A stretch of DNA of 64,000 nucleotides, from assembly GCA_045104985.1 (NCBI GenBank), contig JBGCDA010000064.1:24127-88126 (forward strand). The letters are read 5' to 3'. Within the stretch, counting starts at the first letter, position 1; each line of letters starts with the position of its first letter. This DNA is from Flavobacteriales bacterium. GTDB lineage: Bacteria; Bacteroidota; Bacteroidia; Flavobacteriales_D; Sanyastnellaceae. Under the pieces are notes generated by a model. It had not been told where the DNA came from and did not search any database. It worked only from the letters and a program-made list of their open reading frames with translations. The position numbers were made by a program, and so were the translations under genes. Positions 540-60,625 of the stretch are shown in pieces.

Positions 540-2092
540 AGTTTTATAGATTCTATAACTTTTATGCCATCTATGGCCGCAGACATTATTCCACCAGCAT
601 AACCAGCGCCTTCAGCACAAGGATATAGATTAGATACTTCCACATGCTCAAAGGTTTTAGTTCGAGGAATTCGCACTGGAGAAGAAGTTCTGCTTTCTGG
701 TGCCACTATTATGGCATCATTTGTTAAAAACCCTTTCAGCTTTTTCCCAAAGGCTAAAAACCCTTTCTGAAGCCTGCGTGCTATGGGTTCTGGTAATATT
801 TGATCTAGTCTTACGGATACTACTCCAGGCACATAGCTACATTTTGGAAGATCTTTACTCAATGTGCCATTTACGAAATCGAGCAGTCTCTGAGCAGGTA
901 GAGCTTGTGTTTTTCCTGCGGCTTTCCAGCAGTCCTGTTCCACTTTTTCTTGAAATTTTAATCCTTTAAGTGGGCCATAAGATTTAAACGCATCTACCAG
1001 CTCGTCCATCACTTCCACCACCATTCCAGAATTAGCGTAAGGGTTATTCCGCTTACTCGGACTCCAGCCGTTGCTCACTACTGCTGTGGACTCTGTGGCA
1101 CATGGCGCTATTATTCCGCCTGGGCACATGCAGAATGAGTACACGCCTTTCCCTTCTACCTGCTCTACTAAGCTATAGGTGGCAGGTGGCAAGTATTCAC
1201 TGAATCCTATGCCATGGTATTGTATCTTGTTTATGAGCTCTTGAGGATGTTCTACACGCACACCTAAGGCGAATGGTTTGTATTCCAGTGTGATATTTTT
1301 ATCCTGTAATAACTGGAACACATCTCGAGCTGAGTGCCCTGTGGCCAGAACTAAATTAGATACTTTCACCCATTGGTCATTGTTTATTTTTATGCGTTGC
1401 AATGTGTTTTTACCCCATTCCAAATCTGTCATTTTATGGTCAAAATGCACTTCTCCACCAAATTCAATAATGGTTTCTCTAATGGCGGTAATTATCCCTG
1501 GTAATTTATTAGTACCAATGTGCGGATGAGATTCTACCATGATTTCTGCATCTGCTCCATGATGCACCAAAAGGCTTAAAACTTGATTTACATCTCCACG
1601 CTTGGTAGAGCGCGTATATAGTTTTCCATCTGAGTATGTACCAGCACCACCTTCTCCATAGCAGTAATTAGATTCTGGATTGAGCTCATGTTCTTTATTT
1701 AACTTGGCCAGATCTCTTCTTCGGGTTCTTACATCTTTTCCTCGCTCGTAAACTATAGGCTTTAATCCGTTTTCTAAACAAGCCAGCGCTGCAAACAGGC
1801 CTGCGGGTCCAGCACCTATAATATGCACAGGGTCTGCAGAAGAAACATCTTTAAATTCCACTTTTCTAATAGGTGATGTGATTTCATCTCCTTTTAAAAA
1901 TAGCTCTACAGCCAGCTGTATCTTTACTGGTCTTTTTCTAGCGTCTATAGAGCGCTTCTTCAGTTTCCATTCTTTAATGTCTTGGTCGTAAAGTCCACTT
2001 TTTTGCAACGCTAAATGAAATACATAGTCTTCAATATGAGCTTTTTCTGGAGGAACGGATATTTGAACAATTTTCGGCATACAGGAGTTCAA
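524..2092 (-). CDS. FAD/NAD(P)-dependent oxidoreductase (COG2509-like)
   Basis: IIGAGPAGLFAA dinucleotide-binding motif in an uninterrupted 522-aa ORF. Antisense ORFs 700-969 and 1278-1529 were ignored. Confidence 0.8.
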   Translation of the reverse strand: MNSCMPKIVQISVPPEKAHIEDYVFHLALQKSGLYDQDIKEWKLKKRSIDARKRPVKIQLAVELFLKGDEITSPIRKVEFKDVSSADPVHIIGAGPAGLFAALACLENGLKPIVYERGKDVRTRRRDLAKLNKEHELNPESNYCYGEGGAGTYSDGKLYTRSTKRGDVNQVLSLLVHHGADAEIMVESHPHIGTNKLPGIITAIRETIIEFGGEVHFDHKMTDLEWGKNTLQRIKINNDQWVKVSNLVLATGHSARDVFQLLQDKNITLEYKPFALGVRVEHPQELINKIQYHGIGFSEYLPPATYSLVEQVEGKGVYSFCMCPGGIIAPCATESTAVVSNGWSPSKRNNPYANSGMVVEVMDELVDAFKSYGPLKGLKFQEKVEQDCWKAAGKTQALPAQRLLDFVNGTLSKDLPKCSYVPGVVSVRLDQILPEPIARRLQKGFLAFGKKLKGFLTNDAIIVAPESRTSSPVRIPRTKTFEHVEVSNLYPCAEGAGYAGGIMSAAIDGIKVIESIKLKKES

Positions 2093-2124
2093 AAATACAG
2101 TTTGAAAGTCTTAGTATAAGGAAT

Positions 2125-4152
2125 GTGAATGTTTACTTTTGGCCGAAGCCTAAGAACAAAGTTAAAATGAGATATAACAGAAGGGGATTCGAAACAGATG
2201 AGCTGCACAGTATTTATAAAGCACTCCTAAAGCCCAGACTGATAGAAGAGAAGATGCTGAGCCAATTAAGACAAGGTAAAATCTCTAAATGGTTTTCAGG
2301 AATTGGCCAAGAGGCCATTTCTGTAGGATTAACTCTAGCGCTGGATGAGGATGAGTTCATTCTGCCTATGCATAGAAATTTAGGTGTGTTCACCACACGC
2401 CAAATTCCATTGCAACGCTTATTCAGCCAATTCCAAGGAAAAGCCAATGGGTTTACAAAGGGAAGAGACCGTTCGTTTCATTTCGGTTCTAAGGAGCACC
2501 ATATAGTAGGCATGATTTCTCATCTGGGGCCTCAAATGGGAATAGCAGATGGCATAGCTCTAGCACATAAACTTAAAAAGAATAAGAAAGCCACTCTAGT
2601 AATTACTGGAGATGGTGGTGCTTCTGAAGGAGATTTTCACGAGTCTGTGAATGTAGCGTCTGTTTGGGGGTTACCAGTTGTGATATGTGTAGAAAATAAC
2701 CACTGGGGATTATCTACACCATCTAGTGAGCAGTTCAGGTGTGAGTCTTTTGCAGATAAAGGCATAGGTTATGGCATACCTGAGGAAAACGTATTTTCCA
2801 TAGATGGGAATAACATTATAGAGGTAATGAAAACCGTTAAGAAAGCGGCTAAAATCTGTAGGAGAGGAAATGGCCCCACGCTTATAGAGTTTAATACGTT
2901 TAGAATAAGAGGCCATGAAGAAGCCAGCGGAACTAAATATTACCCAGAAGGACTCATTAAAAAATGGGAGAAGTATGATCCTGTAGATTGTTTTGAGGCA
3001 TACTTGCTTCAGAATAGACTCATTAAAAAAGAAGAAAATCAGGCATATAAAGATGAAATTAAAGCAGAGATTAATGAGCATTTAAAGCTGGCCTTAGCCG
3101 AGCCTGAAATAGAAGTAAATTTAGATGAAGAGCTGGCAGATATTTTCAAGCCTTTCTCTACCGAACTTACCGAACCTGGTTATCACACTAAAGAAATGCG
3201 GTTTATAGATGCCATTACAGATGGTCTTAAAGAATCTATGAAGAAGCATGAAAATCTAGTGCTTATGGGACAAGATATAGCTGAATATGGCGGTGTGTTT
3301 AAGGTTACCGAAGGGTTTGTGGAAGAGTTTGGGAAGGAGCGTGTAAGAAACACCCCTCTGTGTGAGTCTGCTATAGTAGGTTCTGCCTTAGGTCTTTCCA
3401 TTAATGGAATGAAAGGAATGATGGAAATGCAGTTTGCAGATTTTGTGACTTGTGGGTTTAATCAAATCGTAAATAATTTAGCCAAGCTGAATTACCGATG
3501 GGGAGAAAATGCTGATGTAGTGGTACGCATGCCTACAGGTGGTGGTATGGCAGCAGGCCCATTCCACAGTCAGTCTAACGAGGCGTGGTTTTTTCATGTG
3601 GCAGGGTTAAAAATAGCATACCCTGCGTTCCCTGAAGATGCTAAAGGGCTGCTTATAAGGTCTTTTGAAGACCCTAACCCTGTATTATTTTTTGAACACA
3701 AAGGGCTTTACCGAAGTATTTCTCAGGAAGTGGCAGAAGGGTATTACTCATTACCATTTGGAAAGGCTAATGTGGTCAATGAAGGAAATGAACTTACTAT
3801 CGTTACTTACGGAATGGGGGTGCACTGGGCGCTTAATTATTCAGAGCAGCATCCTGAGCAAAGCATAGAAATTATAGACTTAAGAACTCTAGCGCCTTTA
3901 GATACTGAAACAATTTACGCTTCGGTTAAGAAAACCAATAGAGCTATAATTTTGCATGAAGATAATATGACGGGTGGAATAGGAGGAGAGTTGTTGTCTC
4001 TGATCCAAGAAAACTGTTTTGAGCATTTAGATGCACCTATCATGAGATGCGCCAGCTTAGACACGCCAGTGCCTTTTGATGCTAATAAAGAGATCCAGTT
4101 TATGGCAAAAGGCAGATTAGCAGAAACAGTCAGTAAGGTACTTTCTTTCTAG
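2125..4152 (+). CDS. Branched-chain 2-oxoacid dehydrogenase E1 component, fused alpha+beta subunits (ATG at 2167 is a more likely start than GTG 2125)
   Basis: TPP-binding signature GDGGASEGDFHES..VENNHWG in the N half and a transketolase-like beta-subunit half (MGQDIAEYGGVFKVT..). The fusion is typical of Bacteroidota. Confidence 0.85.
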   Translation: MNVYFWPKPKNKVKMRYNRRGFETDELHSIYKALLKPRLIEEKMLSQLRQGKISKWFSGIGQEAISVGLTLALDEDEFILPMHRNLGVFTTRQIPLQRLFSQFQGKANGFTKGRDRSFHFGSKEHHIVGMISHLGPQMGIADGIALAHKLKKNKKATLVITGDGGASEGDFHESVNVASVWGLPVVICVENNHWGLSTPSSEQFRCESFADKGIGYGIPEENVFSIDGNNIIEVMKTVKKAAKICRRGNGPTLIEFNTFRIRGHEEASGTKYYPEGLIKKWEKYDPVDCFEAYLLQNRLIKKEENQAYKDEIKAEINEHLKLALAEPEIEVNLDEELADIFKPFSTELTEPGYHTKEMRFIDAITDGLKESMKKHENLVLMGQDIAEYGGVFKVTEGFVEEFGKERVRNTPLCESAIVGSALGLSINGMKGMMEMQFADFVTCGFNQIVNNLAKLNYRWGENADVVVRMPTGGGMAAGPFHSQSNEAWFFHVAGLKIAYPAFPEDAKGLLIRSFEDPNPVLFFEHKGLYRSISQEVAEGYYSLPFGKANVVNEGNELTIVTYGMGVHWALNYSEQHPEQSIEIIDLRTLAPLDTETIYASVKKTNRAIILHEDNMTGGIGGELLSLIQENCFEHLDAPIMRCASLDTPVPFDANKEIQFMAKGRLAETVSKVLSF

Positions 4153-5269: not shown

Positions 5270-5278
5270 TTGCAACGC
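5270..5278 (+). repeat. GCGTTGCAA-family motif (TTGCAACGC on + strand), intergenic
   Basis: Exact 9-mer 48 nt upstream of the ytxJ ATG. Confidence 0.9.
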
Positions 5279-5661: not shown

Positions 5662-6258
5662 ATGGAAGAAGATCTTAAAATATTAAAGTTTAGGGTTATT
5701 CTAGATACTGAAGAAGACATCTTCAGAGATATAGATATTCCACATGACTGTTCATTTATAAATTTACACGAGTGCATACAGCAGTCGTTTGGGTTTTCAG
5801 GTATGGAAATGGCCTCATTCTACAGAAGCGGTGAGTTCTGGGATAAAGGAGAAGAGCTTCCACTTATGGATATGGGCGGAGTAGAAGAAGGAGCTCCAGG
5901 GCTGTCTATGAATGATTTAGTGCTTAAGGATCATATTTTTAAAGAACACGAACGGTTTTTATATGTGTATGACTTTTTAAGAATGTGGTGTTTTTATGTG
6001 GAAGTGGTGGAGATTTATAAGCCAGATCCTAAGGTGGATTATCCTGTAATGACTTTTGAGCTGGGTGAAGCTCCAGCAGAAGACAGTAAGGAAATAGACT
6101 TACTAGATGACTTAGATTTAGGTGATTTAGGAGGTTCTACTAAGCAAGAAAAAACAGGAGATCCAGAAATAGATGCTTATTTGGATGATATGGATGATGA
6201 TGAGAATTATGACGACATGGGCATGGAAAATCTGGATGACTATCAGGATCTGTTTTAA
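5662..6258 (+). CDS. pRiA4b ORF-3-like family protein with a poly-acidic C-terminal tail
   Basis: The N-terminal LKFRVILDTEEDIFRDIDIP...FGF...ASFY pattern is typical of the family. The tail is DDMDDDENYDDMGMENLDDYQDLF. Confidence 0.6.
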   Translation: MEEDLKILKFRVILDTEEDIFRDIDIPHDCSFINLHECIQQSFGFSGMEMASFYRSGEFWDKGEELPLMDMGGVEEGAPGLSMNDLVLKDHIFKEHERFLYVYDFLRMWCFYVEVVEIYKPDPKVDYPVMTFELGEAPAEDSKEIDLLDDLDLGDLGGSTKQEKTGDPEIDAYLDDMDDDENYDDMGMENLDDYQDLF

Positions 6259-7184
6259 TGTCATCTCAGAAATTATTAATATGCATAGTAGGGCCTACGG
6301 CCGTAGGCAAGACCAAAATAGCCATTTCAGTGGCTAAGCACTTCGGTGCTGAGATCATATCTGCAGATTCTAGGCAGATGTTTAAAGAAATAGCTATAGG
6401 CACAGCTAAACCTACACCCTCTGAAATAGCGCAGGTGAAGCATCATTTCGTAGATGTTTTGAACTTAGAAGATGATTACAGCGCAGGCCAATTTGAGCGT
6501 GAAAGCCTCGAGTTTTTAAACACCTATTTCCAGAATAATGATGTGTGCGTGTGTGCTGGTGGATCTGGTTTATATGTGAATGCATTGTTGTACGGATTTG
6601 ACGAGCTGCCATCAGACGAAGGAGTTAGAGCTGAGATAATAGCACTGTATGAGAAAGAAGGCATATCAGCGTTGCAACGCGAATTAGAAACCTTAGATCC
6701 TGAATATTTCAATTATATAGATCAATCCAATACTCAGCGTGTAATGCGTGCAATAGAAGTCTGTAGGGTTTCTGGAAAAAAGAACTCTGAGCTGAGAACA
6801 GGACAGAAAAAGGAGAGGCCGTTTAAAACCGCAGTCATAGGTTTATCAAGAGAACGAGAAGAACTTTACCGAAGAATAAACGCTAGGGTAGATCTTATGC
6901 TCAAAGAAGGATTGGTAGAAGAGGTGAAATCAGTTTATGATAGAAAACATTTGAACTCTCTTAATACCGTTGGTTACAGAGAGCTCTTCGGAGCTTTAGA
7001 TGGAGATTATGATATAGAAGAGGCTATAAGACTTATAAAACGAAACTCTAGAAGATTTGCTAAGCGCCAGCTTACATGGTTTAAACGGTTGCCAGAAATC
7101 AATTGGTTTCATCCAGAAGAAGATGACAAGCTCAGGAAACATTTAGACCAATTCTATAAGGGAGGAAAGCTATCTGAAGATTAA
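6258..7184 (+). CDS. miaA: tRNA dimethylallyltransferase
   Basis: P-loop GPTAVGKT, ISADSRQ, and TWFKR near the C-terminus. The start overlaps the upstream stop (TAATG). Confidence 0.92.
   Translation: MSSQKLLICIVGPTAVGKTKIAISVAKHFGAEIISADSRQMFKEIAIGTAKPTPSEIAQVKHHFVDVLNLEDDYSAGQFERESLEFLNTYFQNNDVCVCAGGSGLYVNALLYGFDELPSDEGVRAEIIALYEKEGISALQRELETLDPEYFNYIDQSNTQRVMRAIEVCRVSGKKNSELRTGQKKERPFKTAVIGLSREREELYRRINARVDLMLKEGLVEEVKSVYDRKHLNSLNTVGYRELFGALDGDYDIEEAIRLIKRNSRRFAKRQLTWFKRLPEINWFHPEEDDKLRKHLDQFYKGGKLSED
6669..6680. repeat. Full 12-bp palindrome GCGTTGCAACGC inside miaA
   Basis: Exact; read as Ala-Leu-Gln-Arg. Confidence 0.9.
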
Positions 7185-8364: not shown

Positions 8365-11316
8365 ATGCAAGGCTTTACTGGACATAAAATTCTACTACTT
8401 ACCATTGGCATCTTACTGAGTACTTTTCTATGGGCTCAGGATGACTTCTATATACACGGAACGGTTAAACAAGAATCCACTAATCAAAAGATGGATAATG
8501 TAGAGGTTCAAGTGTTTCAGGATGGGAAATTACTAGATAGCTATGCTACTTCAGGTAATTCTAAATATGAATTCCAAGTTTCTTTAGGTCACTTATATCT
8601 GTTTAAATTCAGTAAATCTGGATTTGTAAATAAGAGTGTGGAGGTAAACACAAAAAATATTCCTGAAGAAGATCAAGAAGGAGGTTTTAAGCTGAATATG
8701 GATATGACCCTCTTTGAATATGTAGAAGGTTTTAATGAAAGTATTATGGATGAACCTCTAGGTAAAGCAGGTTATGACGTAAATATGAATGACATCACTT
8801 TTAACTTGGGGCATACTACCCAAATGAAAAATAAGATAACTGCTGAAAGAGAGCGATTAGAAAATGCAGGTGCTTTAGAAGCTGAAAATAGAAAAAAGTA
8901 TGAAGATCTTATGATCCAGGGAAGTGATAATATGACCAAAGAGAAGTATGAAGGAGCCATAGGAAGTTATGAGTCAGCACTTGCGCTTTTCCCAGATGAA
9001 ATTGAAGCTCAGAATAAACTGCAGGAGGCTAAGGATTTATTGGCGTTGCAAAACAAGGATAAGGAGCTAGAGGCACAATACCAAGCACTTTTAAAGGAGG
9101 GTGAAAGCCTAATGAAAGGAAAGTCGTATGAAGATTCTAAGTCCAAATATGAAGAGGCTTCCTCACTAAAGCCAGATCAGAGCGAGCCTAAAGATAAAAT
9201 CAGAGAACTAGAAGAACTTATAGACGCTGCTGGAAACCAAGCCCAATTTGACGAATTTATGGCTGCTGGAGATGCGGATATGAGCACAGAAGAATACCAA
9301 TCAGCAGTAGATAATTACATGTCTGCCAGAGACATCATTCCTTCTGATAAAGGAGTTCAAAAGAAACTCACAGAAGCACAAGAAAAGCTGGCAGCATTAT
9401 TAGCGGCTGCAGATGCTGAGGCAGCTAAGGAAAAGAGATATAATGATTTAATAGATCAGGCTAACGCTTCCTTTGAAGCAGAAGACTACTCTTTATCTAT
9501 AAACCAGTATAATTCTGCTCTAGAAATAAAGCCCGATGAGGAATATCCTCAGAAGCAGATAGATGAGGCTAATAAGCGCATTAAAGATCTAGCAGCAGCT
9601 GCAGAAACAGATGCTGCCAATGCTGAACAAGCAGCCATAGATGCAGAGTATCAGGGGTTCATAGACATAGCTAATCAAGCGTTTACCCAGGAGGACTTTG
9701 ACAGAGCTAGAAGTAATTACCAAAGTGCTCTAGGAGTTAAGCCCACAGACCAATATGCTAAAAAAAGACTAGAGCGCATAGACGAGCTGGAAGCGGACGC
9801 TTTAACTTCGGCTGCCGAAAGTGAAGCCAATGCTGCACAAGCAGCTAAGGATGCTGAATACCAAGCATTCCTAAATAAAGCTAATGAGGCATTTACAAAT
9901 GACGATTTGACGTTTGCTAAATCTAATTATCAAGAGGCATTAGGCATAAAACCATCAGAAAAGTTCCCTAAGCAGAGAATAAAAAGAATTGAAGAAATTT
10001 TAGCAGAAAGAGATGCGGAGCTACTAGCAGATGACAAAGCTGCAGAAGAGGCTGCTGCTAAAGAAAGAGAGCTTTTAGCGGAGAGAGAAAGAAAGGCTGC
10101 CGAGAAAGCTGCTTCAGAGGAGGAAGAGAGATTGAGACTAGAAGGAGAGTTAGCAGAGAAAGAAAGACTAGCAGAGGAGGAGCGTAAACGAAAAGAAGAT
10201 GCTGATAAACGAAGAAATCTTACTAATAATATAGATGCTAACGCTGAGAAACAGGCTGAAGAGTTTTATCAGCAAATGAAAAAGACAGAAAACCAAGCCA
10301 GGTATGAATCACTTAATTCGAAGAAGGAAGAGTTAAAAAATGCCCTAACGGATAGTTCTACAGCAGCCGAAGATCAAGCTAAAGACGAAAATTCTCAGAT
10401 TAATACTGCTAAGAACGAGATGCAGAAGTTATACTCCGAGGGAGAAAATTATCAAAGAGATAAAAGAGAAAACTTCGATTCTGGTGATGAACGTATAAGA
10501 GCAGAAAATGAAGAAGTGAGATTGAATGCAGATGATAGAAGAAAGGCGGATGTGTTTAAGCTAGATGAGTTTAAGAAGAAAGACATCCAGGCTAAAGCAG
10601 ATGCCAATGGTAAAGCTGTAGATAGGAACGCAGAGAGCACTAGAAATGCTATGAAAGAAGTGTCTAAAGCTCAAAAAGGCTATAATGACACAGGGGAAGT
10701 TCTGAGAAAAGATAACGCCTATAAAATAGACCGTGTAAAGTCAGATATAGCTGAAATGAAAGATGATGGCGAAGATGAGCGCCAGAAATCTGAAAAAGAA
10801 AATCAGAAAGCGAAAGATGAAAGAGCTAAGTTTATAAAAGAAAATACGGAGCTTAACGATGAAAAACTTGCTTCTAACCTAGGGAAAATAGATAATGCCA
10901 AAGATGTAGCCAGTAATCTGGTAAATGAAACTGATAATCAGAAGTCAGGAAATTACGATGAAGTAGAATACCAGAAGGAAAAACGTGCAGAGATGCTAAC
11001 TTCTAATGATGAAAAAACCTTATTGCAAAGCAAAATTAACAGAGAAGAAGCATTTAATCTCAAAAAAGGTGAGCCTAAAAACTATGACGATTACATAGTT
11101 CCTAAAGGAAAAGAGGAATTAGCGGAAGGAGTAACAGAGAGAAGCTATGAAATCAATGAAGGTAGGAAGCTAGTAATAGAACGAACTGTTAAGATTGGAA
11201 ATAAGGTAGACACATTCCTTAAAGTAATTGACAAGAACGCCACTTATTACTTTAAGAATAATAGAAGCATAACTAAGAGCAGCTGGGACAGAGAAACCCT
11301 CTATGCACAAGACTAA
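8365..11316 (+). CDS. Large envelope protein with a signal peptide, a CarboxypepD_reg-like N domain, about 7 TPR-like repeats and a long charged coiled-coil region
   Basis: Signal peptide LLLTIGILLSTFLWAQ. Repeated Y..A...Y..AL.IKP.E.YP..I units. About 330 aa of K/E/D/A-rich low-complexity sequence. Confidence 0.7.
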   Translation: MQGFTGHKILLLTIGILLSTFLWAQDDFYIHGTVKQESTNQKMDNVEVQVFQDGKLLDSYATSGNSKYEFQVSLGHLYLFKFSKSGFVNKSVEVNTKNIPEEDQEGGFKLNMDMTLFEYVEGFNESIMDEPLGKAGYDVNMNDITFNLGHTTQMKNKITAERERLENAGALEAENRKKYEDLMIQGSDNMTKEKYEGAIGSYESALALFPDEIEAQNKLQEAKDLLALQNKDKELEAQYQALLKEGESLMKGKSYEDSKSKYEEASSLKPDQSEPKDKIRELEELIDAAGNQAQFDEFMAAGDADMSTEEYQSAVDNYMSARDIIPSDKGVQKKLTEAQEKLAALLAAADAEAAKEKRYNDLIDQANASFEAEDYSLSINQYNSALEIKPDEEYPQKQIDEANKRIKDLAAAAETDAANAEQAAIDAEYQGFIDIANQAFTQEDFDRARSNYQSALGVKPTDQYAKKRLERIDELEADALTSAAESEANAAQAAKDAEYQAFLNKANEAFTNDDLTFAKSNYQEALGIKPSEKFPKQRIKRIEEILAERDAELLADDKAAEEAAAKERELLAERERKAAEKAASEEEERLRLEGELAEKERLAEEERKRKEDADKRRNLTNNIDANAEKQAEEFYQQMKKTENQARYESLNSKKEELKNALTDSSTAAEDQAKDENSQINTAKNEMQKLYSEGENYQRDKRENFDSGDERIRAENEEVRLNADDRRKADVFKLDEFKKKDIQAKADANGKAVDRNAESTRNAMKEVSKAQKGYNDTGEVLRKDNAYKIDRVKSDIAEMKDDGEDERQKSEKENQKAKDERAKFIKENTELNDEKLASNLGKIDNAKDVASNLVNETDNQKSGNYDEVEYQKEKRAEMLTSNDEKTLLQSKINREEAFNLKKGEPKNYDDYIVPKGKEELAEGVTERSYEINEGRKLVIERTVKIGNKVDTFLKVIDKNATYYFKNNRSITKSSWDRETLYAQD

Positions 11317-11876: not shown

Positions 11877-11975
11877 GCTATGGATATCTATATTGGAATT
11901 TTAGATCGTCAAAAGTAAGCACTCTCTCTAGGATAAAAAGTGTTTAATTTGTATTACCTAAAATCATCCTGCAAA

Positions 11976-13607
11976 ATGAAAAAACTACTGAGTATCCTAA
12001 TTATTTGTACCTGTGCTTACAACTGTACAGCGCAGATTTTCGTGAACGAAGTTATGGCTAGAAATAACTTTACCATAGCCGATGAATTTGGGGAGTTTGA
12101 TGATTGGATAGAAATATATAACCCTACCTCAGAAGCTGTAGATTTGGCAGGAGGCTATTTGACAGATGACTTAGGTGATTTAACAGCACACTTGATAGAG
12201 TCTGGCTCACCAGCGCTAACAACAGTTCCCGCTAATGGCTATCTCATTTTTTGGGCAGATAGTTCTCCAGAGCAGGGAGCTAATCACCTGAGTTTTTCGT
12301 TAAGCGCTGGAGGAGAATCGGTAGCCTTAGTCTTAGGAGATGGTGAGACAGTAGCCAATGCCATTCAGTTTCAGGATCAGGAAAACGATATATCTTTTGG
12401 AAGAGAAACAGATGGAGCCATAGCGTTGCAATACTTTTCTATACCTACCCCTAATGCCTCTAATGTAGATGTAACTCCAGACACTGAGCTCATTCATATA
12501 AATGAAGTGGTGTCAGAGAATACCTCTATCATATTTGATGAAACAGGCCAATACGAGCCTTGGATAGAACTCTATAACCCTAACGATTTTCAGGTAAATC
12601 TAGCTGGATATTCTATAGATTATAATAATGGAGAGTCTGTATATTTAATCGAAAACACAGACCCTAACACTACAGTAATAGAAGCTAATAACTACAAGCT
12701 GTTTTGGTGCGATGCACAGAGCATAGAAGGTCTGCTTCATACACCTTTTACTTTGGCATCTATTGGTACAATAGCTCTTATAGGCCCTGATGGTACTACT
12801 GTTCATGAAATCAGTTACACCAGCCCAGGTGAAGATAGTTCAGTAGGAAGTGAAGAGGATGGTTCGGATACCTACATCACGTTTGATATTCCTACTCCTA
12901 ATGTAACTAATCAGTTAGAGATAGTGTTTCCAGAAATACTATATATAAATGAGTTCATGGCCAGTAACCTCACAGACGTTACAGATAATGCTGGTGAGTA
13001 TGACGACTGGATAGAGATTTATAACCCTAACAGTTATCCCGTAGATCTTTCGGGGTATCATCTGAGCGATAATCTTGGAGGTGATTCTTGGGAAATCCCA
13101 TCTACCTACCCCGATTCAGTGACAGTGCCTGCGGAAGGGTTTCTAATGTTTTGGGCAGATAATGATGAGGAACAGGGAGTAAGACACACTAGTTTTAGAC
13201 TCACGTCTTCAGGAGAAGATGTTATACTTTATTCTACAGATAACTTCACCATGGCAGATTACATAGACTACCCACTCCAGAGTGAGGATGTGAGTTATGG
13301 CAGAGAGATAGACGGTGGAGAGCCTTGGGTATATTTTATTCCCGGAGAGACTACACCCGAAGCCTCTAATAGCGGTACAGATAACGTTACTGACACGTAT
13401 AGAGGTGAATTTAGCTTTTATCCAAATCCTGTCATTCATGAAGTGATATTTTCAGACCGAGTTTCTACGGCAGAGGTGTACACACTTTCAGGAGCACTAG
13501 TTATAAACGAGAAGAATACTAGAGGTTTGGATTTAAGTAGTTTAGAGTCAGGGGTTTATTTTATGACTCTAGATAGTGTTTATTCTCATTTGCTAGTAAA
13601 AGAGTAG
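11976..13607 (+). CDS. Secreted protein with three lamin-tail-like (LTD) domains and a T9SS type A C-terminal sorting domain (ORF-track GTG 11940 replaced by ATG 11976)
   Basis: Three copies of INE(V/F)M/V..N...DE.GE.DDWIE(I/L)YNP....V(D/N)L.GY.L.D. Signal peptide MKKLLSILIICTCAYNCTAQ. The C-terminus FYPNPV...GVYFMTL is typical of a T9SS CTD. Confidence 0.75.
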   Translation: MKKLLSILIICTCAYNCTAQIFVNEVMARNNFTIADEFGEFDDWIEIYNPTSEAVDLAGGYLTDDLGDLTAHLIESGSPALTTVPANGYLIFWADSSPEQGANHLSFSLSAGGESVALVLGDGETVANAIQFQDQENDISFGRETDGAIALQYFSIPTPNASNVDVTPDTELIHINEVVSENTSIIFDETGQYEPWIELYNPNDFQVNLAGYSIDYNNGESVYLIENTDPNTTVIEANNYKLFWCDAQSIEGLLHTPFTLASIGTIALIGPDGTTVHEISYTSPGEDSSVGSEEDGSDTYITFDIPTPNVTNQLEIVFPEILYINEFMASNLTDVTDNAGEYDDWIEIYNPNSYPVDLSGYHLSDNLGGDSWEIPSTYPDSVTVPAEGFLMFWADNDEEQGVRHTSFRLTSSGEDVILYSTDNFTMADYIDYPLQSEDVSYGREIDGGEPWVYFIPGETTPEASNSGTDNVTDTYRGEFSFYPNPVIHEVIFSDRVSTAEVYTLSGALVINEKNTRGLDLSSLESGVYFMTLDSVYSHLLVKE

Positions 13608-13672: not shown

Positions 13673-13681
13673 GCGTTGCAA
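13673..13681 (-). repeat. GCGTTGCAA-family motif (GCGTTGCAA on + strand), intergenic
   Basis: Exact 9-mer 66 nt after the LTD gene stop. The context TAGCGTTGCAATACT is identical to the copy at 12421. Confidence 0.9.
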
Positions 13682-13946: not shown

Positions 13947-16376
13947 ATGGCTGAAGAAAACAAAGAAGTAGAAAAGCAGGAAGAAACTGCTAATACTACT
14001 CAAGAATCTCAGAAAGCAGAAGCCTCTGCTGAAACTGCATCAAAAGCAGTAGAAGAAACCAAATCAGAAGTAGAAGAAGTGGCTGAAGAAGCTACTGAAA
14101 AAGTAACTGAAGCTGCGGCAGAAGTAACTGAAACTGCGGCAGAAGTAACTGAAACTGCGGAAGAAGTAGCCATGGAAGAAGCTCCAGCTGAAAAGCCTAA
14201 AATGGAAGCGGACGACACTGCTACTAAAATGATTGGTGAAGGTGATAACGTAACATTTGAATTTAACAAACCAGCAGAAGCTTTCGACTGGGATGCTACA
14301 GATGATTCAGTAGCAGCTTATTCTGAAGATGAGTTTAGTGATTTCGAAAACAAGTATTCAGAAACGCTTTCTGAACTTGTAGAAAAGTCTGTAACTACAG
14401 GGAGAGTTGTAGATATAGGTAAAAAAGAAATCGTTGTGAACATAGGTTCTAAATCTGAAGGTGTAGTTCAAGCATCAGAATTCAGATATAATCCTGATCT
14501 TAAGATCGGAGATGAGGTGCCGATTTTCGTAGAGCAGCAGGAAGACAGAAACGGACAGTTAGTAGTTTCTCATAAAACTGCCAGACTTCACAGCGCTTGG
14601 GATAGAATTAATACTGCACTAGACACTGGAGATATTCTTCAAGGTTTAGTTAAAAGTAGAACAAAAGGTGGTTTAATCGTAGACGTATTCGGTCTAGAGG
14701 CATTCTTACCTGGTTCTCAAATAGATGTTAAGCCTATTAGAGATTACGATATCTATGTAGGTAAGCAAATGGAATTCAAGGTGGTGAAAATTAATCACGA
14801 GTTTAAAAACGTGGTAGTTTCTCATAAAGCGCTTATAGAAGCTGAGCTTGAAGAACAAAAGAAACAAATTATAGGTGGTCTAGAAAAAGGTCAGGTACTA
14901 GAAGGTCAGGTGAAGAATATTACATCTTACGGTGTATTCATAGATCTAGGTGGTATAGATGGTCTTGTTCATATTACAGATTTAAGCTGGGGTAGAATTA
15001 ATCACCCAGAAGAGATTGTAGAATTAGATCAGAAATTAAACGTAGTAATTCTTGACTTTGATGATGATAAGAAGAGAATAGCACTAGGTTTAAAACAACT
15101 TTCTCCACATCCATGGGAGGCTCTAGATGAGAACCTTAATGTAGGAGATAAAGTAAAAGGAAAAGTAGTAGTTCTAGCTGATTATGGAGCATTCGTAGAA
15201 GTAGCTGCAGGAGTAGAAGGTTTAGTTCACGTAAGTGAAATGAGCTGGAGCCAGCACTTAAGAAGTGCTCAAGATTTCCTCAAAGTAGGGGATGAGGTAG
15301 AAACTGTGATTTTAACTTTAGATAGAGAAGAAAGAAAAATGTCTCTAGGAATTAAGCAATTAGTTCCAGATCCATGGGCAGATATAGAATCTAAATATCC
15401 TGTGGAAAGCAAGCACACTGCTAAAGTGAAAAACTTCACAAACTTCGGTGTATTCGTAGAGCTAGAAGAAGGCATAGATGGTTTAATTCATATTTCTGAT
15501 TTATCATGGTCTAAGAAGATCAAGCATCCATCAGAATTCTGTACAGTAGATCAGGAGCTAGACGTAGTAGTTTTAGAGCTAGATAAGGAGAACAGAAGAT
15601 TAAGCTTAGGACATAAGCAGTTAGAAGAAAATCCATGGGATGTATTCGAAACTGTATTCTCTAACGGGTCTTCTCATCAAGGAACAATTGTGAGAAAAGA
15701 AGGAAGCCAGTTCATAGTAGCTCTTCCTTATGGAGTAGAAGGTTATGCCACTGCTAAACAATTGAAGAAAGAAGATGGAAGCCAAGCTGAAATCGAAGAA
15801 ACTATAGATTTCGTAGTTACGGATTTCAATAAGAATGCTAAGAGAATAGCTGTTTCTCACGTGAGAACATACAGTGATGAAGAAGTTAAACCAGAAAGAA
15901 AAGGGAAACCATCTAACTCTGGAGGTAACAGAGGAACTTCAGCTGCTGTAGCTCGTGTTAATGATAAAGTAGAAAAAGCTACTCTAGGTGATTTAGGTGT
16001 TCTTTCTAGCTTAAAAGCTGAAATGGAAAGCGGTGCAGCTGCTGCCCCAGCTAAAAAAGAAGCTCCTAAGAAAGAAGCTCCTAAAGCTGAGAAAAAAGAA
16101 GAAGCGCCTAAGGCAGAGAAAAAAGCTGCTGGAGCAGATGACCTGAAGAAAATTGAGGGAATCGGTCCTAAAATAGCTTCTACTTTAGCTGAAGCTGGTG
16201 TAGACACTTATGCTAAGTTAGCAGATACTGCATCAGAGAAAATCTCAGAAATCATAGCAGAGGTTCGTGGAAACCACGTAACTGACACTTGGCCTGCACA
16301 AGCTAAAATGGCTGCTGAAGGTAAATGGGATGAGCTTAAAAAATGGCAAGATGAACTAGACGGTGGAAAAGCCTAA
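13947..16376 (+). CDS. rpsA: 30S ribosomal protein S1 with an acidic N-terminal extension and a C-terminal Lys/Ala/Pro-rich linker plus helix-hairpin-helix-like module
   Basis: Six S1/OB repeats (..GRVVDIGKKEIVVNIG.., ..GQVKNITSYGVFIDLGG.., ..GKVVVLADYGAFVEV.. and others). At 809 aa it is longer than the roughly 560-600 aa usual for S1. Confidence 0.9.
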   Translation: MAEENKEVEKQEETANTTQESQKAEASAETASKAVEETKSEVEEVAEEATEKVTEAAAEVTETAAEVTETAEEVAMEEAPAEKPKMEADDTATKMIGEGDNVTFEFNKPAEAFDWDATDDSVAAYSEDEFSDFENKYSETLSELVEKSVTTGRVVDIGKKEIVVNIGSKSEGVVQASEFRYNPDLKIGDEVPIFVEQQEDRNGQLVVSHKTARLHSAWDRINTALDTGDILQGLVKSRTKGGLIVDVFGLEAFLPGSQIDVKPIRDYDIYVGKQMEFKVVKINHEFKNVVVSHKALIEAELEEQKKQIIGGLEKGQVLEGQVKNITSYGVFIDLGGIDGLVHITDLSWGRINHPEEIVELDQKLNVVILDFDDDKKRIALGLKQLSPHPWEALDENLNVGDKVKGKVVVLADYGAFVEVAAGVEGLVHVSEMSWSQHLRSAQDFLKVGDEVETVILTLDREERKMSLGIKQLVPDPWADIESKYPVESKHTAKVKNFTNFGVFVELEEGIDGLIHISDLSWSKKIKHPSEFCTVDQELDVVVLELDKENRRLSLGHKQLEENPWDVFETVFSNGSSHQGTIVRKEGSQFIVALPYGVEGYATAKQLKKEDGSQAEIEETIDFVVTDFNKNAKRIAVSHVRTYSDEEVKPERKGKPSNSGGNRGTSAAVARVNDKVEKATLGDLGVLSSLKAEMESGAAAAPAKKEAPKKEAPKAEKKEEAPKAEKKAAGADDLKKIEGIGPKIASTLAEAGVDTYAKLADTASEKISEIIAEVRGNHVTDTWPAQAKMAAEGKWDELKKWQDELDGGKA
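14100..14168 (+). repeat. About 3.3 copies of a 21-bp in-frame repeat in the rpsA N-terminal extension
   Basis: GAAGTAACTGAAACTGCGGCA repeated; encodes (E/K)VTE(A/T)AA units. Confidence 0.8.
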
Positions 16377-20920: not shown

Positions 20921-20993
20921 CAAATGCCTTAATAGGACGTTGTAAGTTGTGTCCATGATACACTAAGCTATTGTGTGAACCCTTTAAATTGCT

Positions 20994-47223: not shown

Positions 47224-48855
47224 GTGATTAGAGTTTTATGTCTTTTCTGTTTGGTGTGTGTGTGCGTGGTTTTTTCGCGTTGCAATGGCGACTCAGAACA
47301 GTCTCAAAAAAAAGTATTTCGCTATAATGAAGCCGCTGGAGTGAATACTCTAGACCCTGCCAATGCTCGCTATTTAGAAGACATGAGAGTAATAGATCAG
47401 ATCTATGATGGTCTTTTATATTTAGATGATTCTATGAGGGTAAAACCTTCTTTGGCTAAATCATATAAAGTTTCTGAAGATGGTCTAGAATACACTTTCA
47501 TTCTAAAAGAGAATATTCATTTTACTGAACACGAAGCCTTTCCAGATGAAGCCTCTAGGCAAATTACTGCCCAGGATTTTGTGTATAGTTTTAACCGCAT
47601 TTTAGACAAAAAAGTGGCCTCTCCTGGCATGTGGATATTCAGCCAGGTAGATAGAAATAGGCATGATGGGTTTCGTGCTGTAAATGATTCTACACTGATC
47701 ATCTACCTTAAAGAGCCATTTCCTGCGTTTAGTGGGATCTTAACTATGCAGTATTGCAACGCAGTTCCTGAAGAAGTAGTTAATTTTTACGGAGAAGACT
47801 TTAGAAATAACGCTGTAGGTTGTGGTCCGTTTAAACTAGCTTTTTGGTTAGAAGGAGTCAGCTTAGTGCTGCATAAGAACCAGGAGTACTGGAGGGCACA
47901 GAATGAAGGAAGAGACATTCCGAAATTAGATGCGGTTCGAGTAGATTTTATAAGAGATAAGTCTACCATGTTTCTGGATTTTTTAAAAGGTAAGTATGAT
48001 TTCATTTCTGGTTTAGACGGCAGTTATAAGGATGAATTGCTTACTCAGAATGGTGAACTTAGTCCTGCGTATGCCGAGAAAGTGAAGTTTCAGAAAGTAC
48101 CGTTTATAAAAACAGATTACATAGGTTTATTGGTAGATGACAGCCTACTGTCTCATAATAGTCCGCTGAGATCTAAAGCTTTTAGACAAGCGCTGAATTA
48201 CAGTGTAAACCGAAAAAAGCTCTCTAAGTACCTCAGAAATAACTCTGTGTTTCCTGCAGAAAATGGCTTTCTTCCAAAAGGCTTCGATTCTCATGGAAAT
48301 CATAACCATTCAGGTTATAGCTATGATTTAAAATTGGCTAAGGAGCTAATAACTGCTTCAGGGTTTTCAGATCTAACAGAATCTTTAGTCATAAGTACTA
48401 CTGGTGAGTATGTAGACATATGTGAATATTTACAATACCAATGGGAGCAGCTGGGTATTCCAATAAAGGTAGAAACACTTCAGAGCTCAAACCATAGAGA
48501 CTTGGTGGCCAATTCAGAAATAGAGGTGTTTAGAAAAAGCTGGTTAGCAGATTACAGTGATGAAGAAAACTTTCTAGGGCTGTTTTACAGTAAGAACTTT
48601 GCACCCAATGGCCCCAACTATACCCACTTTTCTAATACAGAATTTGACCAATTGTTTGAGAAGGCCATGACCATCTCCGATTATAATGAGAGAAAACACC
48701 TCTATGGAAGAATGGATAGTCTCATTCTGGAAGAAGCTCCTGTAGTGCCATTGTTCTATGATCAAGTATCTCATTTCTTGAATGTTAGGGTGGTTAATTT
48801 TTCTACTAATTCTGTAAATATGATAGATCTGTCTGAGGTAGATTTAATGGAGTAA
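47224..48855 (+). CDS. ABC transporter substrate-binding protein, family 5 (peptide/nickel type), probable lipoprotein
   Basis: GTG start, signal peptide with Cys (FSRC), and SBP_bac_5-like length and pattern (NTLDPA.., ..WLADY.D..NFL). Confidence 0.85.
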   Translation: MIRVLCLFCLVCVCVVFSRCNGDSEQSQKKVFRYNEAAGVNTLDPANARYLEDMRVIDQIYDGLLYLDDSMRVKPSLAKSYKVSEDGLEYTFILKENIHFTEHEAFPDEASRQITAQDFVYSFNRILDKKVASPGMWIFSQVDRNRHDGFRAVNDSTLIIYLKEPFPAFSGILTMQYCNAVPEEVVNFYGEDFRNNAVGCGPFKLAFWLEGVSLVLHKNQEYWRAQNEGRDIPKLDAVRVDFIRDKSTMFLDFLKGKYDFISGLDGSYKDELLTQNGELSPAYAEKVKFQKVPFIKTDYIGLLVDDSLLSHNSPLRSKAFRQALNYSVNRKKLSKYLRNNSVFPAENGFLPKGFDSHGNHNHSGYSYDLKLAKELITASGFSDLTESLVISTTGEYVDICEYLQYQWEQLGIPIKVETLQSSNHRDLVANSEIEVFRKSWLADYSDEENFLGLFYSKNFAPNGPNYTHFSNTEFDQLFEKAMTISDYNERKHLYGRMDSLILEEAPVVPLFYDQVSHFLNVRVVNFSTNSVNMIDLSEVDLME

Positions 48856-48866: not shown

Positions 48867-48875
48867 TTGCAACGC
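48867..48875 (+). repeat. GCGTTGCAA-family motif, intergenic
   Basis: TTGCAACGC 54 nt upstream of the ECF sigma start. A TATCTTTA box lies 17 nt downstream of its TTG. Confidence 0.9.
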
Positions 48876-51450: not shown

Positions 51451-52500
51451 ATGAAAAAACTTTTAGCGATATCCTCTCTTGTTTGCTTAACTGCTTTCAG
51501 CTTTGCGCAAAACCTAGTGCCAAACCCTGGTTTTGAATCATTTACTACCCTTCCTTCTGATTTAGGTCAGTATGATCTTTGTGCTCCCTGGGGTAATGCC
51601 CAAAGTACAGATGCAGATCCTGACTACTATCATCTGAATGCATCACTTCTTGCAGATCTTCCTGTAACCTCAGTGGCGGATGTCTCTCCATATGAAGGAG
51701 ATGCGGTAATGGGATTCACTGCTACTGGTAAATCAGGATCTAATTATAGAGAATATTTAACCGTTAAATTAAACGCTCCATTAACCATAGGAAATAAGTA
51801 CAGAGTTTCTTTTAAAATTACTAATGGAACCATATTTAATCATGCTTTAAGCGGTTTAGGAACAGATAAAATAGGCGTTTCGTTCAGTATGAATGAGCAA
51901 GTGCAATCTGCCAACGCACCACTTAATGCTACTCCAGTTTACGAAACTTCTGATGTCATTTATTCAAGAGCTTGGGAGACCATTCGGTTTAACTTCAGAG
52001 CTACCGATAATTCTGAGTATATCACTATAGGTGTGTTTGGTGATGATTCTGGGAAGAATATTTCTTTCCAAGAAGGGAATTCAAACCTGGCTGAGCTATC
52101 TTATTATTTTTTAGATGATGCAGAAGTAATGCACATTCCTGATGTAATAGTAGAAGCTGAAATTACCGATAGAGACCCTAGATTAACCATAGAGGAAGAA
52201 GTGGAGTCCGATTTTCCGTTTTTTGTTCCGAACGCATTTACACCAGACGGAAACGGAAATAATGATGTGTTCAACATCATCCCTGGTAAAAAAGGAATTG
52301 ACTACACCATATTTGTCTTTGACAGATGGGGTAACCAAATTTACTCAGCTGAAAACGGTAAGCCTGAGTGGGATGGGCGTTGCAATGGAGCTTTGTGTCC
52401 ATCAGACATTTACATTTGGGTCATAAAGTATGAAACTCAAAACGAGGATGGTGAAACTGTGAATAAAGAAGAAACAGGTACTATTCATTTGTTAAGATAG
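51451..52500 (+). CDS. Secreted protein with a CBM4_9-like N domain and a T9SS type B (gliding-motility-associated) C-terminal sorting domain
   Basis: NLVPNPGFE start after the signal peptide. The C-terminus is PNAFTPDGNGNNDVF.......Y.I.VFDRWGN.I........WDG......P...Y.W. Confidence 0.8.
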   Translation: MKKLLAISSLVCLTAFSFAQNLVPNPGFESFTTLPSDLGQYDLCAPWGNAQSTDADPDYYHLNASLLADLPVTSVADVSPYEGDAVMGFTATGKSGSNYREYLTVKLNAPLTIGNKYRVSFKITNGTIFNHALSGLGTDKIGVSFSMNEQVQSANAPLNATPVYETSDVIYSRAWETIRFNFRATDNSEYITIGVFGDDSGKNISFQEGNSNLAELSYYFLDDAEVMHIPDVIVEAEITDRDPRLTIEEEVESDFPFFVPNAFTPDGNGNNDVFNIIPGKKGIDYTIFVFDRWGNQIYSAENGKPEWDGRCNGALCPSDIYIWVIKYETQNEDGETVNKEETGTIHLLR

Positions 52501-55104: not shown

Positions 55105-55118
55105 TGCGTTGCAACGCA
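55105..55118. repeat. 14-bp perfect palindrome TGCGTTGCAACGCA, intergenic
   Basis: Lies in the ruvX/dapD divergent region, 28 nt and 46 nt from the two start codons. Confidence 0.9.
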
Positions 55119-58878: not shown

Positions 58879-58887
58879 GCGTTGCAA
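58879..58887 (-). repeat. GCGTTGCAA-family motif, intergenic
   Basis: Exact 9-mer between the orphan plus-strand terminator and the pruA terminator. Confidence 0.9.
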
Positions 58888-60597: not shown

Positions 60598-60616
60598 GTG
60601 TCGTTGTGTTTTTTTT

Positions 60617-60625
60617 GCGTTGCAA
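60617..60625 (-). repeat. GCGTTGCAA-family motif, intergenic
   Basis: 19 nt upstream of the pruA ATG (minus strand), preceded on the + strand by T6. Confidence 0.9.

Follow-up and report, generated by a model that had tools for sequence, protein, structure and literature searches.

A hyper-abundant, exact nine-base DNA word marks one family-level clade of marine Flavobacteriales

Why should one nine-base DNA word, GCGTTGCAA, recur in exact form within and between the ordinary housekeeping genes of a marine member of the Bacteroidota? The question is raised by a stretch of 64,000 nucleotides, hereafter the window (positions 24,127 to 88,126 of contig JBGCDA010000064.1, from a Flavobacteriales bacterium of the Sanyastnellaceae), for which a preliminary description had reported 26 loci against well under one expected copy, an excess of about two orders of magnitude. 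An exact search of both strands returned 29 matches at 26 loci, 16 on the plus strand and 13 on the minus strand, in line with the absence of strand bias noted earlier. The full palindrome GCGTTGCAACGC is present at 3 of the 26 loci (6669, 16463 and 55106), and all positions given for the word were correct except 32686, which is really 32676. The expectation was 0.17 copies, with a maximum of 2, in 100 dinucleotide-preserving shuffles of the window, and 0.28, 0.19, 0.09 and 0.05 copies under Markov models of order 0, 1, 2 and 3. With 29 copies observed and 0.05 to 0.3 expected, the excess is 100- to 500-fold, and GCGTTGCAA is by a wide margin the most over-represented 9-mer in the window. The results below establish it as a genomic signature word that is specific to a lineage and is read in double-stranded DNA, its copies being kept exact by a strong directional pressure.

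The exactness of the word is apparent from the scarcity of anything resembling it. All 27 types of one-mismatch variant together give only about nine occurrences in the window, with no bias toward the outer positions, and nearly all occurrences of its 7- and 8-mer sub-words fall within full copies. Of 31 TTGCAA hexamers, 26 carry the GCG flank and only 5 do not, and the hexamer total is close to the compositional expectation. These two features had been overlooked in the preliminary description, as had the avoidance of TTG/CAA in the clade that is described further on. The T-rich 5' flank that it did record is real, and sharper than had been claimed: W (A or T) occupies position −4 in 27 of the 29 copies and T occupies position −3 in 24, and G is absent from position +1 throughout. 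This flank information indicates that the recognised unit is an asymmetric stretch of about 13 bp; the extended form reads W-T-n-n-GCGTTGCAA and then any base but G. T-richness is the only thing that the flanks of the copies have in common. Regular or periodic spacing was considered and rejected, given that the spacing could not be distinguished from random (coefficient of variation [CV] 0.77, p = 0.13). Inverted copies had been described as pairs; there is one pair, in addition to three overlapping palindromes, and none of these is terminator-like.

The organism has no close sampled neighbour. The ArgS of the window is identical to MFK7757457.1, from a metagenome-assembled genome (MAG) labelled "Flavobacteriales bacterium"; the nearest sampled relative has 76% ArgS identity, and the closest named genomes, MAGs of Crocinitomicaceae, Fluviicola, Parvicellaceae and Cryomorphaceae, are only 74% identical in ribosomal protein S1. 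The word was nevertheless found in syntenic contigs from marine metagenomes (ENA, JGI, TARA and Logan) with 68 to 76% identity in ArgS or 86 to 87% in a GAPDH-like protein, where chance would give about 0.06 copies per 21 kb:

L081: 1 word locus in 21.8 kb
L082-84: 3 word loci in 21 kb
L085-87: 1-2 word loci in 5.6-11.6 kb
L089-92 and L141: 2-3 word loci in 14-21 kb
L096: 1 word locus in 1.7 kb
L172: 1 word locus in 7.9 kb
L171: 4 word loci in 21.8 kb

Among these contigs, L082-84, L085-87 with L091, and L089, L090 and L141 make up three sets of near-clonal strains. GCGTTGCAA is missing from the syntenic L169/L170 (72% ArgS identity), which offer no permissive position, and from the short fragments L088, L156 and L173. 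Enrichment was seen in none of 80 related Bacteroidota loci around S1 (about 1.3 Mb; 0 to 2 copies each), and metagenome loci with GAPDH-like identity of 73% or less (about 0.8 Mb) yielded no copy except an isolated one. This distribution across the sampled loci indicates that the word marks one family-level clade with a sharp boundary. Enrichment in related genomes, which the preliminary description had put forward as a check, therefore holds for syntenic relatives at an ArgS identity of at least 68%, and no dialect differences were seen within the clade, the same word being present from 100% to 68% ArgS identity. In the relatives every copy lies within a called gene (0 exact copies in 12.4 kb outside open reading frames [ORFs] versus 0.15/kb within them), and among the sampled relatives intergenic copies are specific to the lineage of the window.

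Candidate variants of the word in other lineages did not stand. An unbiased scan of 8- and 9-mers for "dialect" words in sister lineages was dominated by repeats within large genes, and AGCAATTGCT in L002 proved to be ordinary Ala-Ile-Ala coding that is present in sister loci too. One-mismatch copies in the intergenic DNA of relatives turned out to be, for the most part, exact copies read on the opposite strand, conserved motifs of proteins or the conserved promoter TACTTTTGCACCGC. A further conserved promoter, TACTTTTGCAC(C/G)GC, lies at about 20990-21010 upstream of a class IV aminotransferase gene and also occurs in L081, L086, L092 and L172; it is one mismatch from GCGTTGCAA in the relatives and two in the window, and has been converted in no lineage. 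Separately, the palindrome GGTGATCACC was observed in L069 (a Flavobacteriales MAG of 61% GC) at 9377, 10899 and 21198, i.e., three times in 21.8 kb versus 0.035 expected, and may be an unrelated over-represented palindrome of another lineage.

The strength of the pressure can be gauged in coding DNA. Twelve of the loci in the window are intergenic and 14 are coding (54% of copies lie within ORFs), and all six frame/orientation classes are used; the earlier tally of eight, four and two coding copies in the three frames was correct. Compatible positions were defined as protein positions whose amino acids could encode GCGTTGCAA in any of the six classes. In the window, 15 of 28 are realised, where codon usage predicts 0.22, and Ala-Leu-Gln is written GCG TTG CAA in six of nine cases. 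This places on firm ground the earlier view of a DNA-level word, read on both strands and in all frames, rather than a protein motif. When realised fractions were computed per genome with an independent ORF call, they were 55% for the window, 57% for L171, 31 to 40% for L082, L085+86, L090 and L092, 10% for L081 and 0 of 87 positions for the outgroups. Moreover, compatible peptides are themselves commoner, with 1.49 per 1000 amino acids in the window versus 0.76 to 0.99 in the outgroups (roughly doubled), which indicates that GCGTTGCAA shapes protein sequence too.

Orthologous codon alignments showed that copies were made in place, by substitutions at different positions in different lineages. 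Gly-Val-Ala-Met is encoded by GGC GTT GCA ATG in the window and L081, and its start by GGA GTT GCT or GGA GTG GCT in other lineages. The Ala-Leu-Gln of a DDAH-like protein is GCG TTG CAA in the window, L085-87, L089-92, L141 and L171, GCA TTG CAA (one mismatch) in L082 and TCA TTA CAA in L081. Other copies lie in poorly conserved segments in which the amino acids differ between lineages. In all relatives the region upstream of the GAPDH-like gene contains a conserved −7 box and then TTTGCAC (TAAATTTGCAC), where the window has TACCTTTGCAACGC. At the 12 orthologous sites compared, most copies are specific to one lineage or shared by a subset, and the other lineages are often one to three mismatches off. 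Several coding sites are exact in two to six lineages despite nearly saturated synonymous sites; the word may instead have been gained there repeatedly, the positions being permissive.

In-place substitutions at orthologous positions rule out a mobile element. A repeat of the REP (repetitive extragenic palindrome) or MITE (miniature inverted-repeat transposable element) type was rejected because the flanks are unrelated and substitutions, not insertions, are seen at orthologous loci, and the longer mobile repeat family that the preliminary description had named as a possible refutation was not encountered. A trivial cause, be it codon usage or a protein motif, such a repeat, or an assembly or contamination artefact, could draw on the eight coding copies that are in-frame Ala-Leu-Gln or Leu-Gln-Arg. 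It is barely credible, given that codon usage predicts 0.2 to 0.3 copies where 15 to 16 are observed, that 12 loci are non-coding, that copies arise by substitution, and that the same word is enriched in the independent ENA, JGI, TARA and Logan assemblies. A structured RNA or tRNA origin was likewise rejected, Rfam and ARAGORN giving no match in the window. Artefact, protein motif and mobile repeat are thus all excluded as accounts of GCGTTGCAA.

The individual copies in the window, with their gene context, are as follows:

1394-1402 (+): coding, antisense to the FAD-oxidoreductase ORF 524-2092 (−), where the gene strand reads Leu-Gln-Arg
2003-2011 (−): coding, sense, Ala-Leu-Gln close to the N-terminus of ORF 524-2092 (−)
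2410-2418 (−): coding, antisense, in the ORF 2125-4152 (+) for a fused pyruvate dehydrogenase (PDH) E1 alpha/beta
5270-5278 (−): intergenic, in a divergent region; TGGTT-TTGCAACGC, 48 nt upstream of the brxC-like gene at 5327 (+)
6669-6680 (palindrome, no strand): GCGTTGCAACGC, coding Ala-Leu-Gln-Arg in a miaA-like isopentenyl pyrophosphate (IPP) transferase gene, 6258-7184 (+)
9043-9051 (+): coding, sense Ala-Leu-Gln, tetratricopeptide repeat (TPR) protein 8365-11316 (+)
12423-12431 (+): coding, sense, protein sorted by the type IX secretion system (T9SS), 11940-13607 (+)
13673-13681 (+): intergenic, 65 nt past the stop of 11940-13607 and far upstream of ribosomal protein S1
16463-16474 (palindrome, no strand): intergenic, 38 nt upstream of a phosphoribosyltransferase gene at 16513 (+); not at the equivalent spot in L081 and L082
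22395-22403 (−): coding, antisense (ATT GCA ACG CAA), poorly conserved protein 22205-23551 (+); specific to the lineage of the window
22672-22680 (+): coding (GAG CGT TGC AAA), same gene 22205-23551 (+); flanking residues differ from relatives, Cys conserved
24980-24988 (+): coding (GGC GTT GCA ATG, Gly-Val-Ala-Met), DHDPS/dapA 24961-25845 (+); a synonymous codon choice shared with L081 only
28029-28037 (−): coding Ala-Leu-Gln, DDAH-like 27639-28580 (−); same position in L085-87, L089-92, L141 and L171
31031-31039 (+): intergenic, 13 nt upstream of the start of 30412-31017 (−); gene strand TAAAA-TTGCAACGC-AAAAAA
32647-32655 (+): intergenic, fused to the −7 box of the GAPDH-like gene (TACCT-TTGCAACGC), where relatives have TAAAT-TTGCAC
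32676-32684 (−): intergenic, inverted partner of the 32647 copy, 20 nt away; L081 has gtaTTGCAAT at this spot
40742-40750 (−): intergenic, divergent, 18 nt from a CoA-transferase start and 76 nt from the start at 40827 (+)
44078-44086 (−): coding, sense Ala-Leu-Gln, ABC transporter 42374-44230 (−)
44235-44243 (+): intergenic, 4 nt upstream of the ABC transporter start; −7 box fusion (TAAGT-TTGCAACGC)
47277-47285 (+): coding (xxG CGT TGC AAT), at the lipobox Cys of peptide-binding lipoprotein 47224-48855 (+)
47754-47762 (−): coding, antisense, same lipoprotein 47224-48855 (+)
48867-48875 (−): intergenic, 54 nt upstream of the extracytoplasmic function (ECF) sigma factor ORF at 48930 (+)
52377-52385 (+): coding, CHU_C/T9SS protein 51451-52500 (+)
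55106-55117 (palindrome, no strand): intergenic, between divergent ruvX (28 nt) and dapD (46 nt); −7 box TATATTTG 1 nt upstream on the dapD side
58879-58887 (+): intergenic, 84 nt past an aldehyde dehydrogenase stop and 265 nt upstream of rlmL
60617-60625 (+): intergenic, 19 nt upstream of an aldehyde dehydrogenase start; −7 box fusion (TAGCT-TTGCAACGC-AAAAAAAA)

The copies at 2003, 24980 and 47277 are near ORF 5' ends yet truly coding, as judged from conserved N-termini and the lipobox, and the earlier division into 12 intergenic and 14 coding loci holds. The intergenic DNA is larger than the roughly 4 kb previously estimated, at about 4.4 to 5.8 kb (7 to 9% of the window). With its 12 loci in about 4.4 kb, non-ORF DNA has a density of 2.7 loci/kb versus 0.24/kb in ORFs, i.e., about 11 times higher. 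Most intergenic loci lie 4 to 86 nt from a start codon, and the genes downstream are unrelated (PDH, S1, pyrimidine, GAPDH-like, ABC transporter, ECF sigma factor, ruvX/dapD and aldehyde dehydrogenase). At 3 of 15 intergenic readings (32647, 44235 and 60617), the word is fused in exact register to the Bacteroidota −7 box as TAnnT-TTGCAACGC, and three more copies fit with one mismatch; for all TTG, 4.3% are in this register (p ~0.02). In this family GCAC typically follows the −7 box (TAAATTTGCAC and TACTTTTGCACCGC are examples), which thus offers natural six- or seven-base seeds for GCGTTGCAA; some of these remain unconverted. In the genome of the window, copies have often been seeded from the TTG of such boxes. 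Toward the downstream gene most intergenic copies read TTGCAACGC and then an A-run, an orientation that the preference for a T-rich 5' flank, together with the A-rich mRNA leaders of Bacteroidota, would give without any regulatory role. The TTG of the word was also considered as a −33 promoter element and rejected, because the spacing to TAnnTTTG is wrong (e.g., 26 nt at 16463) or the −7 box is missing. At 60661-61592 (−) there is a gene pair made up of a RES-domain toxin and an antitoxin of the Xre/MbcA/ParS type; the copy at 60617, which belongs to the promoter of the aldehyde dehydrogenase gene next door, is found just outside it.

These positions bear on the possibility that GCGTTGCAA is the site of an abundant DNA-binding protein, either nucleoid-associated and chromosome-organising or a global transcription factor, with each site kept by selection for its local function and the protein co-opted, in the lineage of the window, at promoters, where the word would lie over or just after the transcription start. 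The crowding of 12 of 26 loci into about 7% of the DNA, mostly 4 to 86 nt from a start codon, speaks for such a protein, as do the three exact and three near-exact −7 box fusions; the asymmetric 13-bp information content fits a protein footprint, and some sites are exactly conserved across lineages. A role in chromosome structure has, in addition, been argued for highly iterated palindrome 1 (HIP1) of cyanobacteria (PMC5861425). However, real operators are degenerate and GCGTTGCAA is all-or-none, half of its copies, and all of those in the relatives, are intragenic and in both orientations, and no theme unites the downstream genes. The sites come and go between lineages instead of being fixed at particular genes, spacing is indistinguishable from random, only 3 of 15 readings are in the −7 register, and the −7 overlap is equally explained by seeding from pre-existing TTTGCA. 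We consider this explanation quite unlikely. The operator or promoter-proximal element offered as an alternative in the preliminary description may still hold for the intergenic copies of the window, three of them fused to −7 boxes, and leaves unexplained the coding half and the all-coding relatives.

A second bias accompanies the word. Expressed as an observed/expected ratio (O/E) relative to dinucleotides and with the word masked, CAA/TTG is the most depleted trinucleotide of the window, at 0.60. Its O/E is 0.62 in L171, 0.72 to 0.73 in L169/L170, 0.75 to 0.81 in L082-L092, 0.91 in L172, 0.96 in L081 and 0.94 to 1.09 in the outgroups. The depletion is frame-independent: Leu is encoded by TTG in 9% of cases, versus 19% in L081 and 29% in distant relatives, and Gln by CAA in 55%, versus 68 to 70% in relatives, TTG/CAA spanning codon boundaries stands at 0.40 to 0.83 of the codon-shuffle expectation, and non-ORF DNA at 0.69. 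TTGC and GTTG are rarer still than the trinucleotide depletion alone would make them, which accounts for the mere five TTGCAA hexamers without a GCG flank, and words two and three mismatches from GCGTTGCAA are 2.8-fold and 1.8-fold rarer than in the outgroups. Because synonymous sites are saturated between lineages, the direction of the TTG/CAA-removing mutations is unrecoverable. Restriction-site avoidance of TTGCAA was rejected as an explanation, since its rarity is part of the broader avoidance of TTG/CAA and not specific to the hexamer. CpG depletion was discarded as a correlate: CpG O/E is 0.53, and some outgroups devoid of the word are CpG-poor too. Among other biases, CTAG is about 3.3 times as frequent in the window as in distant Flavobacteriales (L002-L017), AG/CT has an O/E of 1.28 and CCGG is strongly depleted (M2 O/E 0.36), an oligonucleotide usage that is out of the ordinary among bacteria.

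The depletion follows broadly the same rank order as the saturation of compatible positions, the two values being 55% and 0.60 in the window, 57% and 0.62 in L171, 31 to 40% and 0.75 to 0.81 in five relatives, 10% and 0.96 in L081, and 0% and 0.94 to 1.09 in the outgroups. This agreement suggests one cause, with the exception of L169/L170, which are depleted and have no copies. A single cause would be supplied by another kind of self/non-self or genome-maintenance signal, for instance a Chi-like word that protects against a helicase-nuclease, or an immunity word against a nuclease that attacks TTG/CAA DNA. Such a signal would explain the enrichment and the purge together, and the frame independence of the depletion, with non-coding DNA affected too, agrees with it. 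The idea is wholly inferential and we regard it as very doubtful, because strand polarity of the Chi or KOPS (FtsK-orienting polar sequence) kind was not seen in this one 64-kb window (16 versus 13 matches), no candidate nuclease gene is present in it, and 100-fold enrichment is far above that of known Chi sites. Chi, KOPS and architecture-imparting sequences (AIMS) resemble GCGTTGCAA in being short over-represented chromosomal words, in their case read by DNA-processing machines; they are strongly replication-skewed and enriched few-fold, whereas GCGTTGCAA is evenly divided between the strands of the window and enriched more than 100-fold.

Only two known classes of element, uptake sequences and HIP1, behave like GCGTTGCAA, and the closest in form is the uptake signal sequence (USS) of the Pasteurellaceae, with its 9-bp core (AAGTGCGGT in the Hin type, ACAAGCGGT in the Apl type). 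A 9-bp core with an A/T-rich flank is the layout of the Haemophilus USS. Both words are non-palindromic, equally frequent on the two strands and present about once per 1 to 2.5 kb. In genomes with USS or the DNA uptake sequence (DUS) of Neisseriaceae, 34.5 to 65% of copies are in ORFs, the encoded tripeptides are roughly doubled and the residues concerned are poorly conserved (PMC2817400). GCGTTGCAA likewise has about half of its copies in ORFs, in all frames, with tripeptides roughly doubled, poorly conserved residues, an origin by point mutation and a family-level distribution. USS and DUS also display a steep fall from zero to one mismatch and an under-representation of poorly matching words, with single mismatches over-represented in a graded manner (PMC1939737); GCGTTGCAA shares the steep fall and the rarity of poorly matching words. 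The DUS itself, a 12-mer (AT-GCCGTCTGAA) with species dialects that is read by the minor pilin ComP, is similar in being very sharp, family-wide and, as in the genome of the window, strongly enriched in intergenic DNA, and GCGTTGCAA has one inverted pair. It differs in that the inverted copies of GCGTTGCAA are not terminators, no dialects were seen and no ComP-like gene was identified. The behaviour resembling USS, DUS and HIP1 that the preliminary description had sensed is thus recognisable in the clade restriction, the in-place point mutation, the use of all frames, the doubled tripeptides and the intergenic enrichment in the genome of the window.

By analogy with USS and DUS, we tentatively read GCGTTGCAA as a tag for self-recognition that biased transmission amplifies when DNA is exchanged, a reading that we hold to be plausible though short of probable. 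The source of the pressure would be a sequence-specific protein whose asymmetric recognition covers about 13 bp. Word-bearing DNA would be preferentially transmitted, most likely by being favoured in natural transformation, through the uptake and/or recombination of conspecific DNA, and this word would then be built by the same molecular drive as the USS of Pasteurellaceae and the DUS of Neisseriaceae, and would serve as a tag for DNA exchange within a marine Flavobacteriales family. More speculatively, the loss of TTG/CAA could be another trace left by this reader, arising from the avoidance of cleavage sites or of sites that are partial or act as decoys. Natural competence is known in the phylum: Riemerella species are naturally competent and R. 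columbina prefers its own DNA, with no uptake sequence known for it (PMC7965970). The sole k-mer search for an uptake sequence in Flavobacteriaceae gave only poly-A words (PMC7965970).

Several observations weigh against the tag. There is no uptake, competence, pilin or recombination gene in the window, none could be tied to the clade, and no receptor is known for this element of the Bacteroidota, a phylum other than that of the USS. We know of no counterpart to the genome-wide TTG/CAA depletion in genomes with USS or DUS, and an uptake model does not predict depletion. The copies of the relatives are all coding, with none in the 12.4 kb of non-ORF DNA, whereas a simple drive would be expected to occupy unconstrained DNA before any other. 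There is no enrichment of one-mismatch forms (0.12/kb in ORFs of the window versus 0.19/kb in outgroups), unlike in Haemophilus and Neisseria (PMC1939737). Finally, the 6-bp palindrome in the core and the GCG flank on 26 of 31 TTGCAA are more reminiscent of HIP1, in which GCGATCGC is built around CGATCG, than of USS.

HIP1 (GCGATCGC) and the alternate highly iterated palindromes of cyanobacteria do share with GCGTTGCAA the combination of GCG and a palindromic core, core hexamers that are nearly all flanked, an excess of at least 100-fold, genic and intergenic copies, exactness across diverged genomes and the depletion of sibling sequences. In a HIP1-like origin, a methyltransferase and a methylation-linked bias of mismatch or very-short-patch repair would make and keep the word, or else the word would be selected for a chromosome-level role of the type proposed for GCGATCGC. 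The target of the enzyme would be a sub-sequence inside the word, possibly GCG or the palindrome TTGCAA, and sibling sequences would be converted or purged, which would leave sub-words depleted. Indeed, the GCG flank on TTGCAA, with a hexamer total near expectation, parallels CGATCG within GCGATCGC, the word is GC-rich in an AT-rich, CpG-poor genome, sub-word depletion runs in step with word strength, and over-representation is within the HIP1 range of 15- to 300-fold. For a degenerate methyltransferase site, one form can be over-represented and its sibling forms depleted, as in Calothrix (Elhai, PMC4390886), and the exactness of coding copies across lineages with near-saturated synonymous sites resembles the hyper-conservation of HIP1 (PMC5861425). 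What makes this origin unlikely is the unit itself, a non-palindromic 9-mer with an asymmetric flank that extends to the full 12-mer palindrome at only 3 of 26 loci, together with the rarity of one-off variants, which in HIP genomes are frequent and fall preferentially at the outer positions. A cognate methyltransferase is not known, the 64-kb window has no DNA methyltransferase or Vsr-like gene, a repair bias at a single methylated base cannot alone fix nine positions, TTG/CAA depletion at the trinucleotide level goes well beyond any hexamer site, and the phylum is another. To our knowledge, a contiguous and asymmetric specificity of 9 to 13 bp would also be unusual for a methyltransferase. 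The uptake-tag and HIP-like readings may not be fully distinct; according to a preprint from 2024 (bioRxiv 2024.09.10.611283), HIP1 improves natural transformation in Synechococcus.

The self-recognition tag can be carried one step further, to a previously unknown DNA self-recognition system of a marine Flavobacteriales family in which one reader protein would both drive GCGTTGCAA to near saturation of permissive positions and purge TTG/CAA genome-wide, in all frames and in non-coding DNA. In this extended form the proposal is possible if rather doubtful. If true, it would provide the first case of an uptake-signal-like word from beyond the Proteobacteria or, alternatively, of a HIP-like word from beyond the cyanobacteria, and the coupling of word enrichment with sub-word purging has not been described for USS, DUS or HIP1. 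We found no report of GCGTTGCAA or of a comparable element in Bacteroidota, in line with the preliminary description; a literature search for the word itself gave only primers and unrelated constructs. The properties that set it apart are the near-saturation of codon-compatible positions, the coupled trinucleotide purge and the lineage-specific spread into promoters.

Hyper-abundant exact words are rare. USS and DUS show how bacteria restrict exchange to their own kind, HIP1 is still unexplained after 30 years, and GCGTTGCAA adds an independent example in an abundant uncultured lineage of marine Bacteroidota. The clade provides a natural gradient, from the window and L171 through five relatives and L081 to outgroups with none. 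This gradient, the trinucleotide bias and the spread into promoters make up a comparative system in which the reader gene should be findable by phylogenetic profiling, and which could help separate molecular drive from selection. In practical terms, the word is a sharp taxonomic marker for binning the clade, and it strongly distorts codon choice and even protein sequence.

The window is otherwise made up of ordinary housekeeping genes, among them those for a fused PDH E1, ribosomal protein S1, ArgS, DapA, DapD, RuvX, BshC, an ECF sigma factor, and T9SS and SusC-type proteins. Searches of the 64-kb window gave no gene for a DNA methyltransferase, Vsr-like protein, competence, pilus or pilin, uptake, recombination, a nucleoid protein or a candidate nuclease, and neither tRNA genes (ARAGORN) nor Rfam families. 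Some gene structures deserve mention. The ORF at 34446-37898 (−) contains, at 36560-37094, a 108-nt tandem repeat in five copies of 95% identity, which explains the other repeated 12-mers of the window, such as CCATCATCACAA; it gives 36-aa repeats in a 1150-aa protein for which Pfam and NCBIfam returned no match. At its N-terminus, ribosomal protein S1 (13947-16376) is lengthened by an acidic stretch of about 100 aa, and at its C-terminus by a tail, both with short in-frame tandem repeats of 21-nt and 27-nt units at 14097-14168 and 16072-16125. In the ORF at 2125-4152 (+), the alpha and beta parts of a pyruvate/2-oxoacid dehydrogenase E1 are fused into a single protein of 675 aa. The GAPDH-like protein (31126-32589, −; 487 aa) carries an N-terminal extension of about 130 aa before Gp_dh_N and Gp_dh_C, which is 85 to 87% identical across the clade (orthologues in L081-L092). 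In the 5' leader of its gene, at about 32621-32640 (−), a hairpin reads GGCTTT-caatga-AAAGCC in the window and GACTTT-caatga-AAAGTC in the relatives, and this compensatory pair change suggests a structured element of the 5' untranslated region, to which Rfam gave no match.

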